DNA of 64,000 nt from Longimicrobiales bacterium (GCA_965249725.1 OZ252251.1:512001-576000), one strand, 5' to 3'; shown: positions 8,422 to 12,968, counted from the first letter of the stretch. Made by a program: numbers and translations. Notes: a model not told the origin generated them from the letters alone.

Positions 8422-8477
8422 CCTCACCCCAGATCCGTGTGCGCCCACCAGACGACGCGGCCCCATGATTCCTGGCG
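8422..8477 (-). repeat. Copy of repressor 3' end (copy C, with single-base insertions)
   Basis: ATCCGTGTGCGCCCACCAGACGACGCGGCCCCATGATTC matches 9555-9592 and 12135-12172; shares CCTCACCCC with copy B. Confidence 0.92.
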
Positions 8478-8559
8478 ATCCACGCCTCTCCTTTATCCCC
8501 GTAGTGCGGTTCATGGGGGTGCACTCGGTGCCGTCCATTCTCAAGAATGGCCTCAACGC

Positions 8560-9510
8560 TCACATCTCATTGGGGTACCATCCCGAGCCCTGTTGGATGA
8601 TCTCATTCGTCCAGGCCAGCAACAGGCAGAGCCCCTTGTTCTGCACGCCCCACTTCCGTCGCGCGTCGCCACCGTAGACATCCGCGAAGCCCTTCATCTG
8701 GTCGTGGTAGAATGCGATGTGTTTCGAGTACGACGTGCCCGTGCCCGTATAGAGACTTAGGTCTGAGAATCCGCTAGTCCTCTCGGCAAGAGATGTGAAG
8801 ACCGTCTTCCCATCTATCCACTCAATGACTTCAGTAATCTTAATGTCATCAAACTTCCCCAAATCAATGAGGCAGTTGATCTCACGGATGAGGTCGGTCA
8901 GCACGCGAAGCCGGACGGCTGGTAATGCGGTGGTAGCGTCTATTCGTCCCTTCATTTGCGCCACCAAATCCCCATAGCGGCTAGCGTCTGTCGGCGAGAT
9001 CCTAATGCCCGCCGTATGAGCGATGTGGTTTTTCACGGAACGCAAGCCTGAAATGGTTCTGTTCTCGGACGGAGTTAGAATATTTTGGTACTCAAGATAA
9101 TCGATCGGTCGATCATGCGGACGCTGAAAGGTCTCACCGTCCGGCAAGAGTTCTCCGACCTTTCTTCCGGCAGACTCCTCTAGAGATCTCCATGACTCCA
9201 ATACGAGGCTAACTCCGGTCCCCTCCTCATCAGGGTGAGGTCGGTCAGGAACAGAACTGCTTGAGTCTCCGCTCACATCGGCCTCTATGGCGGTCAGCTG
9301 AAGAGAAACGTACTTCCCCCCGAATGTTAACCGCTGAGCGCGTTCGATTACTGATCCAATCTGATCTCTGAACACTAGTAAGCCGACCCCTATCACCCCC
9401 GGCCACGCCAGTGCTTCGACCAGATCGATCATATGGTCCGGCTGCAACAGCCAGAAGCCAAGGAAGAGCGCAGCCGCTACGGGCAGCACGACCGCGGCGA
9501 GGGTCTTCAC
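8560..9510 (-). CDS. Hypothetical membrane protein (2 N-terminal TM), prophage cargo
   Basis: RBS AAGGAGG before GTG at 9510; LAWP..IG..LLVFRDQI motif; visibly AT-richer than the phage core. Confidence 0.75.
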   Translation of the reverse strand: MKTLAAVVLPVAAALFLGFWLLQPDHMIDLVEALAWPGVIGVGLLVFRDQIGSVIERAQRLTFGGKYVSLQLTAIEADVSGDSSSSVPDRPHPDEEGTGVSLVLESWRSLEESAGRKVGELLPDGETFQRPHDRPIDYLEYQNILTPSENRTISGLRSVKNHIAHTAGIRISPTDASRYGDLVAQMKGRIDATTALPAVRLRVLTDLIREINCLIDLGKFDDIKITEVIEWIDGKTVFTSLAERTSGFSDLSLYTGTGTSYSKHIAFYHDQMKGFADVYGGDARRKWGVQNKGLCLLLAWTNEIIQQGSGWYPNEM

Positions 9511-9542
9511 AGCGTCCTCCTTTCCGGGCTCACTTGCCTGCC

Positions 9543-9592
9543 CCTCACCCCTCAATCCGTGTGCGCCCACCAGACGACGCGGCCCATGATTC
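9543..9592 (-). repeat. Copy of repressor 3' end (copy B, RIMGRVVWWAHTD*)
   Basis: 9551-9592 vs 12131-12172: 39/42 identical, and all three differences are synonymous in the repressor frame. Confidence 0.95.
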
Positions 9593-9624
9593 GAAGATGA
9601 TTTCTCGCCCTTCACGCGGTAGTC

Positions 9625-10506: not shown

Positions 10507-10646
10507 CCCTGTTCCTCCTCCTCCTCTCAAGCGGAAGCTCAATATGTTCCTTTCCTTCCCTTGTCTCTATTCACGAACGATCCTCGCCTCACCATGATCG
10601 TCGCATCGATTGTCCAAACCATATGACCTGCCCGCGTGGCTGGAGC

Positions 10647-10665
10647 ACCCCCCTCAGCGTGTGCG
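10647..10665 (-). repeat. Possible degenerate remnant of the repressor 3'-end repeat
   Basis: CCCCTCAG-CGTGTGCG vs CCTCAGTCCGTGTGCG; lies ~10 nt after the Sel1 stop, between cargo genes. Confidence 0.45.
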
Positions 10666-10676
10666 GAACTCGCCGC

Positions 10677-12110
10677 TCATCCGCCCCCACTGATGCGGGC
10701 GAATAGGGTCGTGCTGAGTTCCTGCGCCTCAGCGATTTGGGCAGCGGTCATACGTGGCTGGAGATCTGCCTTTACACTGACGGCGCCCTCGTGCCCTTGC
10801 GCGGCGGCAAGGTTGAGCCAGGCATAGGCCAGGACGTAATTCTCGGGCACGCCTTCACCGTTGGCGTACATGAGACCCAGGTTGTTCTGAGCCGGGGCGT
10901 TCCCTTGCTCGGCGGCCATACGATACCAGCGCACGGCCTCAGCATCATCTTCGGGCACGCCTTCGCCGTTGGCGTAAATGACACCCAGGTTCTTCTGAGC
11001 CAGGGCGATCCCTTGCTCGGCGGCCATACGATACCAGCGCACGGCCTCAGCAATATCTTTGGGCACGCCTTCACCGTTGGCGTACATATACCCCAGGAGG
11101 GACTGAGCCAGGGCGTTCCCTTGCTCGGCGGCCATACGAAGCCAGCGCACGGCCTCAGCATCATCTTCGGGCACGCCTTCACCGTTGGCGTACATATACC
11201 CCAGGAGGGACTGAGCCGGGGCGTTCCCTTGCTCGGCGGCCATACGAAGCCAGCGCACGGCCTCAGCATCATCTTCGGGCACGCCTTCACCGTTGGCGTA
11301 CATATACCCCAGGAGGGACTGAGCCGGGGCGTTCCCTTGCTCGGCGGCCATACGAAGCCAGCGCACGGCCTCAGCATCATCTTCGGGCACGCCTTCACCG
11401 TTGGCGTACATATACCCCAGGAGGGACTGAGCCGGGGCGAATCCTTGCTCGGCGGCCATACGAAACCAGCGCACGGCCTCAGCATCGTCTTCGGGCACGC
11501 CTTCGCCGTTGTCGTACATGACACCCAGGTTGTACTGAGCCAGGGCCAATCCTTGCTCGGCGGCCATACGATACCAGCGCACGGCCTCAGCATCATCTTC
11601 GGGCACGCCTTCGCCGTTGACGTACATGACACCCAGGTTGAACTGAGCCAGGGCCAATCCTTGCTCGGCGGCCATACGATACCAGCGCACGGCCTCAGCA
11701 TCATCTTCGGGCACGCCTTCGCCGTTGACGTACATGAAACCCAGGCTGGACTGAGCCGAGGCCAATCCTTGCTCGGCGGCCATACGAAACCAGCGCACGG
11801 CCTCAGCATCGTCTTCGGGCACGCCTTCGCCGTTGTCGTACATGACACCCAGGTTGTACTGAGCCGAGGCCAATCCTTGCTCGGCGGCCATACGAAACCA
11901 GCGCACGGCCTCAGCATCGTCTTCGGGCACGCCTTCGCCGTTGTCGTACATGACACCCAGGTTGTACTGAGCCAGGGCGTTCCCTTGCTTGGCTAAGCGT
12001 CGGGTTTCCAAGAGGGACGAGTCCTGCCCGACCGCCAGGGTAAGTAGCGCTGCCACCGCCAATGCGGAAAAAGCAAGGACCGCCGTTGCGATCCTCTGTG
12101 TTCGTGTCAT
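10677..12110 (-). CDS. Secreted Sel1-like repeat (SLR) protein, 11 repeats
   Basis: Signal peptide plus 11 x 36-aa AxAQxxLGxMYxNGEGVPEDDAEAVRWxRMAAEQG repeats and a typical C-terminal cap. Confidence 0.95.
   Translation of the reverse strand: MTRTQRIATAVLAFSALAVAALLTLAVGQDSSLLETRRLAKQGNALAQYNLGVMYDNGEGVPEDDAEAVRWFRMAAEQGLASAQYNLGVMYDNGEGVPEDDAEAVRWFRMAAEQGLASAQSSLGFMYVNGEGVPEDDAEAVRWYRMAAEQGLALAQFNLGVMYVNGEGVPEDDAEAVRWYRMAAEQGLALAQYNLGVMYDNGEGVPEDDAEAVRWFRMAAEQGFAPAQSLLGYMYANGEGVPEDDAEAVRWLRMAAEQGNAPAQSLLGYMYANGEGVPEDDAEAVRWLRMAAEQGNAPAQSLLGYMYANGEGVPEDDAEAVRWLRMAAEQGNALAQSLLGYMYANGEGVPKDIAEAVRWYRMAAEQGIALAQKNLGVIYANGEGVPEDDAEAVRWYRMAAEQGNAPAQNNLGLMYANGEGVPENYVLAYAWLNLAAAQGHEGAVSVKADLQPRMTAAQIAEAQELSTTLFARISGGG
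10791..11978 (-). repeat. 108-bp tandem repeat array (11 units)
   Basis: Near-identical 108-bp units; units 6-8 identical. Confidence 0.95.
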
Positions 12111-12131
12111 CGCTTCTTCCTCACGTCTTCC

Positions 12132-12968
12132 TCAGTCCGTGTGCGCCCACCATACAACGCGGCCCATGATTCTGGCCAAGTCGTCTAACAGCTGAGGCTC
12201 GTAGCTATCGTTGTCACTGTCCGCCCACCAGCGGTGGTCGCGTTTGCGAAGGCGCTTGACCAGTAGGCCGTCTCCCGCCTGAAGTGCGTAGATCTTGCCG
12301 CTGCGTGGGGATGTGTGAATCTCATGGACCAGTGCCGCGTCTCCGGCGAATATCGTGCGCTCCATACTATCGCCCAATACATCGACCAGGAAGACGTCCT
12401 TGGCCTTCAGCCTTCGCTTGCGCAGCCAGCTTGTGCGGAATTTGACCTCACCTGCGACGGGTTCTTGCTCGGCGAACGTGCCGGTTCCCGCTGCCAGCCG
12501 AATATCCTCGGGCGCGTACCGTCTGACGGTCTCGTAGTCTTCGTCCCGCCAGCCTGGCGCGGATTGGATTGGCGACACGTCGGGGTCTGGGGTCTCGGCC
12601 GTAGCGGCGGCCTGCGCCCGCAGGCGGTCGAGTTCTTCATCTCTGCGGTCCAGCTCGTTTTCGGTGCGCTGGAGCATGGCTTCCAGCTCGGTCCGCCTCT
12701 TCCATTCCTCGCGCACCCTCTTCTCAGCTTCGCGCGTGCCCTCTACTGCGGGCGTGGGGTCGTCGGTGAGGCCCGCCAGGTAGTCGAGCGAGACGTCGAG
12801 AATGCGCGCGGCCCGGACTGCTCCATCAAGGAGCATGGCTGACCGATCGTGCTCCACATGCCCGATCATTGTCCGGTCATATCTCTCGCCAAGCTCCATT
12901 GCCAGTTGGCGTTGCGACAACCCGGCCCGTCTTCGTGCCTGAACTAGGCGCTCTCCAATTGCAATCAT
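12132..12968 (-). CDS. CI-like repressor (XRE HTH + S24 peptidase)
   Basis: N-terminal HTH (RRRAGLSQRQLA...DVSLDYL), AAG cleavage motif, GDSM serine, LVKRL lysine, GRVVW end. Confidence 0.92.
   Translation of the reverse strand: MIAIGERLVQARRRAGLSQRQLAMELGERYDRTMIGHVEHDRSAMLLDGAVRAARILDVSLDYLAGLTDDPTPAVEGTREAEKRVREEWKRRTELEAMLQRTENELDRRDEELDRLRAQAAATAETPDPDVSPIQSAPGWRDEDYETVRRYAPEDIRLAAGTGTFAEQEPVAGEVKFRTSWLRKRRLKAKDVFLVDVLGDSMERTIFAGDAALVHEIHTSPRSGKIYALQAGDGLLVKRLRKRDHRWWADSDNDSYEPQLLDDLARIMGRVVWWAHTD

Follow-up and report, generated by a model that had tools for sequence, protein, structure and literature searches.

What does it mean when the last codons of a phage repressor gene recur, in the same orientation, between the genes that lie behind it? 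Prophage defence hotspots are known, and how genes are added to them without loss of the old ones is mostly unexplained. We analysed a 64,000-nt stretch of DNA from a Longimicrobiales bacterium (GCA_965249725.1 OZ252251.1:512001-576000; hereafter the window, with positions counted from its first nucleotide). It carries a prophage in which a cI-type repressor gene is followed, on its own strand, by an array of cargo genes reaching to a convergent late operon, and copies of the 3′ end of the repressor gene punctuate this array (Table 1). The repetition of the repressor tail is real. We consider it likely, with a probability of roughly 0.7, that the tails are fossils of successive exchanges of immunity and cargo, which would later have been reused as short homology. 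A preliminary description of the same DNA had proposed an integron-like array with the tail as a dedicated recombination site, a proposal that our results do not support. Loci are labelled L and genomes G, each with a number; G000 is the source genome, and contigs C1, C2 and C3 carry its prophages.

Repressor tails in the window

A repeat search returned three co-oriented copies of the tail, at 12130-12172, 9550-9592 (93% identical to the first) and 8428-8470 (79% in ungapped alignment), referred to here as copies A, B and C. Copy A is the end of the live repressor gene. Over the 14 codons proper (12132-12173 compared with 9552-9593), copies A and B differ at four positions, all of them synonymous; in the coordinates of the preliminary description they agree at 39 of 42 bases. 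When B is aligned with C, a single inserted nucleotide is seen, together with an indel that affects the stop codon; C has no stop. A 17-mer core of the tail occurs three times in the window at up to two mismatches, compared with 0.01 expected, and none of 100 shuffled sequences reached three occurrences; a 35-mer occurs twice, with 0.00 expected. Given these shuffles and expectations (0.00-0.01), chance is excluded as the source of the copies, and the recurrence of the tail twice behind cI stands as first described.

Copy B is identical, over 38 nt, to the tail of the live repressor gene of the C2 prophage. We conclude from this exact match that copy B derives from a related repressor allele, as had been suggested from its synonymous differences. 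Directly after copy B stands a G-rich motif, 'GGGGTGAGG', which likewise follows most other copies, such that a short core across the stop codon plus 'GGGGTGAGG' is common to most of them. Each copy is followed by one cargo gene, in keeping with the preliminary description: a Sel1-repeat protein, a nuclease-like protein, a 313-aa protein and a 217-aa gene split by an insertion sequence (IS).

The boundary between the Sel1 and nuclease genes is composite. The remnant originally placed here, at 10647-10665 ('CGCACACG' followed by 'CTGAGGGG'), is weak when taken alone, but a 45-nt stretch at this boundary is what is left of a repressor tail of another class. The 45-nt remnant closely matches one in a sister prophage (L009, ~10690-10815), in which the composite scar as a whole is also found (~10690-10858). 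In short-read contigs of run X1, the likely source sample, six different short linkers connect class-2 tails with the class-1/3 fossil, and contigs of the nuclease cassette from three other studies span ~9556-10598 and end at the tail repeats. Both the six joints and the contigs that halt at tails fit tails that are repeated in many contexts.

Sister prophages and relatives

The source genome contains three related prophages, at 492183-533194 on C1, at 1-5370 together with 55351-65185 on C2, and at 2939339-2960749 on C3. All seven matches to the 17-mer core in this genome (at most one mismatch) fall within these three prophages, and a reversed-pattern control gave none. Their early genes are 98.9-99.4% identical and their late genes 96.7%; the C3 prophage matches the window at 96.7% DNA identity up to window position ~5163. 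In the block at window ~5164-13172, in contrast, the three are unrelated apart from copies of ISs and portions of cI and cro. The three prophages thus have flanks of 96.7-99.4% identity around unrelated arrays, as found at a hotspot. The C3 repressor has a different tail (VMWTGRML, then stop) with a class-2 fossil directly after it, and class-2 or class-1 fossils stand at nearly every cassette boundary of the C3 array. The earlier proposal that cargo was stacked unit by unit behind cI is supported; these three prophages have a ~99% identical backbone and unrelated arrays.

Beyond the source genome, the motif was found in 4 of 201 sampled genomes of the family (7, 14, 5 and 1 copies) and in 3 of 401 sampled genomes of the phylum. 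Three other family genomes, two of them labelled Longimicrobiales, have the same layout as the window. A scan of one genome per species returned 32 loci, which we read by inspection: 24 have the tail in the '...LG.VVWWAHTE/D' context of a repressor, 7 look unrelated and 1 is ambiguous. The 24 come from metagenome-assembled genomes of Longimicrobiales, Gemmatimonadales, Bryobacterales, Binatia and Terriglobia. Five Bryobacterales loci that were mapped consist of a cro-like gene, a repressor with helix-turn-helix (HTH) and S24 domains, small cargo genes with fossils, and convergent late genes, with fossils of up to three tail classes in a layout. The comparison of relatives that the preliminary description had called for therefore shows the same layout with cargo that differs in order and content. 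Some cassettes are common to G000, G198 and G009, in differing contexts.

Tail copies were found only downstream of repressor genes and only on the repressor strand. Among 60,372 nt of arrays, all 25 strong remnant hits (at least 33 bits) lie on the cI strand and none on the other. The duplicated 3′ part of cI is not a constant block. Remnants start at about codons -3, -5, -6, -10, -12, -13, -15, -17, -21 and -23, or reach back 117-125 nt or more, and their extents run from ~10 to at least 125 nt; among the Bryobacterales remnants is an S24 fragment of 82 aa. The same behaviour is seen for at least three tail classes (VVWWAHTD/E, GQVMWTGRTL-type and GEVKWMAREL).

Repressor genes are not the only source of such scars. 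At the other edge of the hotspot lies a mirror image, a remnant of the 3′ end of the spanin-like gene, which tblastn aligns at 69% identity with residues 153-209 of the product of the intact gene. Eight more partial matches to the spanin-like end occur in six other loci, six of them reaching the last residues; remnants of this end were seen in L009, L038, L041, L042 (two) and L043. The 3′ end of the cro-like gene, encoding RERVLAGG, is also repeated exactly over 20 nt, at 13286-13305 and 13641-13660. The second copy precedes a conserved 233-aa gene, and a small conserved open reading frame (ORF; 13312-13569) lies between the two. Three small ORFs that lie in tandem in L038 end in the motif '...VLAGGEG'.

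A scan of the viral_contigs collection for the tail returned no matches, and none were returned by a search of metagenome_contigs for the exact 23-mer. A degenerate tail pattern matched six loci in metagenome_contigs, and in the five that were inspected (all but L082) the peptide lies in unrelated-looking ORFs. A tblastn search of cultured phages with the C-terminal domain of the repressor gave only matches below 37% identity, and on this basis we recognise no cultured relative. Phage lambda, whose immunity region has cI followed by the lysogeny-expressed rexA/rexB, is like the window in having cargo directly behind an S24 repressor on the same strand. Two nucleotides after the lambda cI stop, at 37190-37226 (L085), the sequence GGC AAG GTG TTC TGG TCG GCG CAT AGC TGA reads GKVFWSAHS and stop, which resembles, by eye only, the class-2 tail GRVVWWAHTD and stop. 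Lambda has one cargo unit and one possible fossil, whereas here there are at least four units, each with a fossil, and several tail classes.

In G198 (14 copies) and G009 (5 copies), where the tails are spread over several separate prophages, every copy is on the forward contig strand. A tRNA-Met gene is present among the early genes at L037 (685-756), L038 (2392-2463), L039 (2825-2896), L040 (3014-3085) and L045 (3302-3374); the G198 and G009 prophages thus bear tRNA-Met, and the scanned regions of G000 (the window, L008 and L009) are without it.

Formation of the arrays

The stretch that separates the repressor gene from the end of the late (lysis) operon is an accessory and defence-gene hotspot of a temperate phage family. 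We propose that related phages of differing immunity would repeatedly exchange, at this hotspot, a block made up of the repressor and nearby cargo. One crossover would fall in conserved DNA; the other would be imprecise and would often hit the final 10-125 nt of the repressor gene already in place. The new repressor and its cargo would then be placed ahead of the beheaded end of the old repressor and its old cargo. Repetition would stack units, each preceded by a fossil tail, and the fossils would act in further swaps, unequal exchanges and deletions. Mostly short fossils would survive, since long ones would be unstable direct repeats. The tails would serve as short homology because they are the sole sequence common to otherwise unrelated arrays. 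We infer this order of events, co-transcription of the cargo with cI, and the enzymes: likely agents would be the RecE-like and RecT-like proteins of the phage or RecA of the host. A 298-aa RecE-like exonuclease is encoded (DUF3799, 4.5e-25; ExoVIII C-terminal region, 2.2e-23).

Pairwise comparison of 30 class-2 copies (435 pairs) shows where homology between arrays breaks. Most pairs share only the tail and up to 19 nt after it. Others share sequence far to one side. L040:11894 and L045:15602 share 215 nt upstream and 11 nt downstream; L038:9270 and L039:8913 share 590 nt upstream and 12 nt downstream; and L040:10202 and L044:10524 share 600 nt upstream and 1 nt downstream. In all three pairs, the upstream cargo and the junction are the same and the cargo after them differs. 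Conversely, L037:14075 has 12-13 nt upstream but 108-127 nt downstream in common with three other copies, and L039:8913 and L045:11656 also have the same cargo with differing upstream sequence. In six such pair sets, homology stops within 1-19 nt of the tail, and it does so on just one side. One cargo is preceded by four different upstream contexts, and the same cargo can stand behind a live tail in one genome and behind fossils of varied length elsewhere (L037:14075, L037:9848, L042:9607, L044:9743).

One pair, L040:10202 and L045:10133, gives the clearest snapshot of the proposed exchange. The two share 117 nt upstream and 600 nt downstream, and for this reason we take the L040 remnant to be the end of an L045-type repressor still joined to its first cargo. 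In G009, an amidohydrolase gene stands behind a live repressor gene; in G198, the final ~117 nt of the G009 repressor gene and the same amidohydrolase gene (99.2% identity over 1595 nt) lie behind another repressor and its first cargo. Such an arrangement is expected if units are stacked by displacing the body of the old repressor.

Several observations weigh against reading the tails as reused fossils of such exchanges. First, L040 and L045 differ by a 3.8-kb segment, neither end of which coincides with a tail; changes thus do not all run through the tails. Second, remnants often lie within 0-11 nt of the stop codon of another repressor with no cargo between them (L009:7644, L046:10056, L063, L070, L075 and lambda), and some junctions run class 1, class 2, class 1. 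Random imprecise joining does not predict such tight junctions, and they arose more than once, because they differ between lineages; they may be explained as cases in which a cargo-less phage received its first array. Third, remnant starts cluster mildly at the Gly codon of G-R-V-V, in 4-5 independent cases. Fourth, the 245-aa protein encoded next to the RecE-like exonuclease has a weak RecT match (9.8e-5), which at 22.4 bits is below the 24-bit Pfam cut-off. Fifth, the deletions or circles between copies A, B and C that the preliminary description had envisaged were absent among the 15 of 42 joints listed, from contigs that are unable to show rare forms.

A bolder reading, which we hold as tentative and rather doubtful, is that the tails, and likewise the cro-like and spanin-like ends, would be maintained as portable homology arms, the long-postulated 'linkers' of modular phage evolution, in a RecE/RecT-driven platform for cassette exchange across phyla, possibly including the lambda cI-rexA junction. 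By way of this platform, phages of different immunity would stack and trade defence genes. The tails would then have a selective value of their own, in that an immunity module could recombine into phages with another class of tail. This reading would explain why class-2 tails stand right behind repressors of other classes in independent junctions.

It is distinctly unlikely that the tails are purely passive scars, that is, old imprecise junctions with all later change made by unrelated indels. The insertion in copy C and the near loss of the remnant at 10654-10665 are consistent with this reading, as are the end points of the 3.8-kb difference noted above, and the exact identity of copy A with B and C is only 17 nt. 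Nonetheless, the six one-sided pair sets could then have arisen only if separate events had struck the same few nucleotides many times. Moreover, of the 435 pairs, 174 (40%) share at least 23 nt of exact identity and 42 share at least 31 nt, so that 40% exceed the minimal length for pairing by Red-beta. The minimal pairing lengths are quoted as 23-27 nt for Red-beta and 31-34 nt for RecA (PMC3945230).

The integron-like mechanism, in which a site-specific recombinase inserts circular single-gene cassettes at the repressor tail, appears very improbable. It would account for a co-oriented array with mostly one gene per unit and a repeat before each, for the recurrence of this layout in several genomes, and for the cluster of starts at one codon and the short core with 'GGGGTGAGG' in most copies. 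Variable starts alone are not decisive; islands that target tRNA genes likewise duplicate blocks whose length differs from one element family to another. The four units in the window are co-oriented with cI, as are 40 of 56 array ORFs in relatives (by a rough gene caller). Integrons are similar in setting co-oriented, mostly single-gene units beside a fixed gene with a repeat at every boundary. However, integrons have IntI and hairpin attC sites, and here we found neither. No tyrosine or serine recombinase was detected in or beside any array among 102 proteins scanned (~85 array genes), and IS transposases are the sole mobility genes in the arrays. The only Phage_integrase match is to the product of window 19859-21127, at the prophage end, outside the array and 8 kb away, and the region around this end (21051-21350) shares no 9-mer with the tail (at most an 8-mer). 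Five 71-nt tail segments folded as DNA on both strands showed no attC-like hairpins (z of -0.77, +1.28, +0.70, -1.20 and +0.56 relative to shuffles). In addition, three unrelated tail sequences and two other gene ends act alike, repeat extents vary, and remnants decay by indels and lose their stop codons.

Less probable still is that the tails are kept as cis elements for the cargo, which would act in ribosome binding or coupling, mark a place for RNA processing or be bound by a regulator shared with the cI message. Tails are better conserved than their surroundings, and 'GGGGTGAGG' follows most copies and in the C2 prophage stands 4-7 nt before the start codon of the first cargo gene. Yet 'GGGGTGAGG' may itself be the first part of a remnant of the other tail class that has since decayed. 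The folds gave no structure signal; a search of Rfam found no family at the tails, its best hit being a chance match (E-value 0.24) inside the IS; and there was no excess of promoter-like (sigma-70-like) or terminator-like sites. Furthermore, the distance from tail to cargo start ranges from ~14 to >100 nt, cargo genes carry their own Shine-Dalgarno sequences, and some cargo lies on the other strand. Finally, an assembly artefact has a practically negligible chance of explaining the repeats: the C2 and C3 contigs begin or end inside prophage copies, and for this reason the assembly probably broke on prophage repeats, but the same architecture is present in independent assemblies of several phyla, contrary to the artefact that the preliminary description had named as one possible refutation, and short-read contigs from run X1 and three other studies cover the cassettes and stop at tails as true repeats would.

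Some further candidates were tried and rejected. The reverse complement of the tail resembles the T-stem, acceptor stem and CCA of a tRNA end, such as might serve as an att site, and ARAGORN finds no tRNA at any copy; one chance match to the tail in Pseudomonas is a real tRNA, and the best of 56 host tRNA and tmRNA ends differs from the reverse complement of the tail by 4 mismatches over 17 nt. The tail as an att site of the prophage integrase was set aside, with no string of at least 10 nt common to the presumed left and right ends and only an 8-mer shared with the right end; the true att core of the prophage was not found. Readthrough of the stop codon into a second tail would be in frame in the C3 prophage; this idea was dropped because the second tail is out of frame in lambda and L070.

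Comparison with known systems, cargo and neighbouring genes

As judged from its sequence, the region is a cI-rex-type accessory/defence hotspot; the recombinase and hairpin sites that define an integron, and the constant extent and matching integrase that define a duplicated att site, were not found in it. Tandem integrative elements, such as tRNA islands and e14 or phage 21 in icd, duplicate the 3′ end of their target gene and so leave, as here, a full gene followed by cargo and partial 3′ copies. Such elements bring or need an integrase whose att site is the duplicated block, whereas here no cassette has an integrase, the extents vary, and there is no cognate integrase with a matching att site. 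In rhs/CDI C-terminal displacement, new 3′ modules displace old ones, which are kept downstream as orphans with a short conserved piece of the gene through which homologous exchange can later take place. The stacking logic is similar; there, a functional toxin domain with its immunity gene is displaced, whereas here it is a non-functional repressor end with unrelated cargo.

P2-like phages and P4-like satellites with their variable defence hotspots (PMC9122126), and BstA, encoded downstream of prophage repressors (PMC8585504), are alike in having a slot between conserved genes with fast-changing anti-phage cargo; the abstracts of these accounts make no mention of gene-end remnants in the slot. 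Phage recombinases of the Rad52-like/RecT type are described as promoting relaxed homologous recombination that is a source of mosaicism (PMC3945230, PMC2327257). The likeness lies in exchange at short or diverged homology flanking mosaic segments. In that work, the outcome is replacement between two homologous flanks, whereas here a detached gene end serves as one of the flanks and units become stacked. Full-text searches brought up no paper, as judged from titles and the starts of abstracts, on repressor-end remnants between cargo genes.

Every boundary keeps a datable scar, which makes the arrays a readable record of swaps of immunity and cargo and of the short sequences used. The same layout occurs in phages of several phyla and for three different conserved genes. 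If the tails are active landing pads, the 'linker' idea of modular phage evolution would gain a concrete example that can be tested, and slots for defence genes in uncultured phages could be recognised simply by such tails.

Table 1 Features of the repressor-cargo region, with window positions
Feature	Position	Strand	Remarks
cI-type repressor (HTH + Peptidase_S24)	12132-12980	minus	282-aa ORF
Tail copy A, class 2	12132-12173	minus	last 14 codons of the live repressor; reads RIMGRVVWWAHTD, then stop
Tail copy B, class-2 remnant	9550-9592	minus	39-42 nt; stop codon kept
Tail copy C, class-2 remnant	8428-8480	minus	~50 nt; decayed
Composite scar, Sel1/nuclease boundary	10578-10665	minus	three parts
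Composite part: mini class-2 remnant	10654-10665	minus	
Composite part: class-1/3 repressor-tail remnant	10589-10633	minus	45 nt; reads RGQVIWFGQSMRRSW, then stop
Composite part: linker	10578-10588	minus	'GGCGAGGATCG'
Cargo 1, Sel1-repeat protein	10677-12110	minus	477 aa; Pfam Sel1 5.1e-136 in 11 stretches
Cargo 2, secreted nuclease-like protein	9625-10542	minus	GmrSD_C (DUF1524-type) 2.1e-7 and Excalibur 2e-11 (Pfam)
Cargo 3, 313-aa protein	8560-9501	minus	hydrophobic N-terminus; GTG start behind GGAAAGGAGGA
Cargo 4 5′ part, PDC-S67 relative	8199-8374	minus	PADLOC PDC-S67 1.7e-16, profile positions 1-56
Cargo 4 3′ part	6160-6625	minus	PADLOC PDC-S67 1.7e-32, profile positions 75-195
IS3-family insertion sequence (orfA, orfB)	6626-8198	minus	splits cargo 4; Pfam HTH_Tnp_1, rve
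Remnant of spanin-like gene 3′ end	5897-6073	plus	57 codons; mirror-image scar at other edge of hotspot
HicB/HicA toxin-antitoxin pair (moron)	5110-5799	minus	between intact spanin-like gene and its remnant
Spanin-like last gene of late operon	4530-5159	plus	conserved right-hand flank of variable block
cro-like HTH gene	13091-13315	plus	Pfam HTH_31 7.1e-7

The repressor gene diverges from the cro-like gene, and its product combines an N-terminal HTH (HTH_3, 1.7e-5) with a complete Peptidase_S24 domain at the C-terminus (2.5e-19, covering profile positions 5-116 of 116), which identifies it as a LexA/cI-type S24 protein with predicted repressor activity. Across the arrays, the predicted cargo is typical of prophage accessory and defence genes: a C5 methyltransferase with a Bpu10I-like restriction endonuclease, an N6_N4 methyltransferase-Mrr fusion, type IIG-like enzymes, HicAB, HigBA, RelE, ParE, AbiU2, PDC-S33, PDC-S34, PDC-S67, PDC-M19B, a Bor-like lipoprotein, and Sel1 and ankyrin proteins. 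Cargo 3 has no family match in PADLOC or NCBIfam, nor in Pfam, for which the query was a longer, 351-aa ORF (8560-9615).

Cargo 4 is the 217-aa gene, whose reading frame is continuous once the 1573-bp IS3-family element is removed; both of its halves match the phage-defence candidate PDC-S67. Copies of this element, 99-100% identical, are present at six or more other places in the genome. Contigs of run X1 contain the joint 6625 to 8199 without the IS, from which we take the insertion to be either polymorphic or recent. The HicB and HicA matches (Pfam, 6e-20 and 3.3e-4) are accompanied by a promoter-like site at 5789-5761 that matches 11 of 12 positions. The array abuts the convergent late operon at the spanin-like gene, which is preceded by a gene for a DUF5675 protein (3906-4529). 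The spanin-like name rests on position only, with no family match in Pfam or NCBIfam, and the DUF5675 protein is likewise a putative endolysin by position only. On the other side, the prophage reaches the tyrosine integrase gene, with its end near 21192.

The conserved 233-aa protein (13688-14389), present on the cro side in all three prophages, is Cys-rich with several CxxC pairs and has no family match in Pfam or NCBIfam. In L045, the ORF of a Bpu10I-like restriction enzyme (13081-13938) reads in frame through a repressor-tail fossil and ends ...IMGRVVWWAHTDRG before the stop; the fossil may here have come to serve a cargo protein as its C-terminal end. The Sel1 gene of the window (10682-12061) is made up of eleven 108-nt internal repeats, the central units of which are 81-84% identical, which suggests a recent internal expansion.

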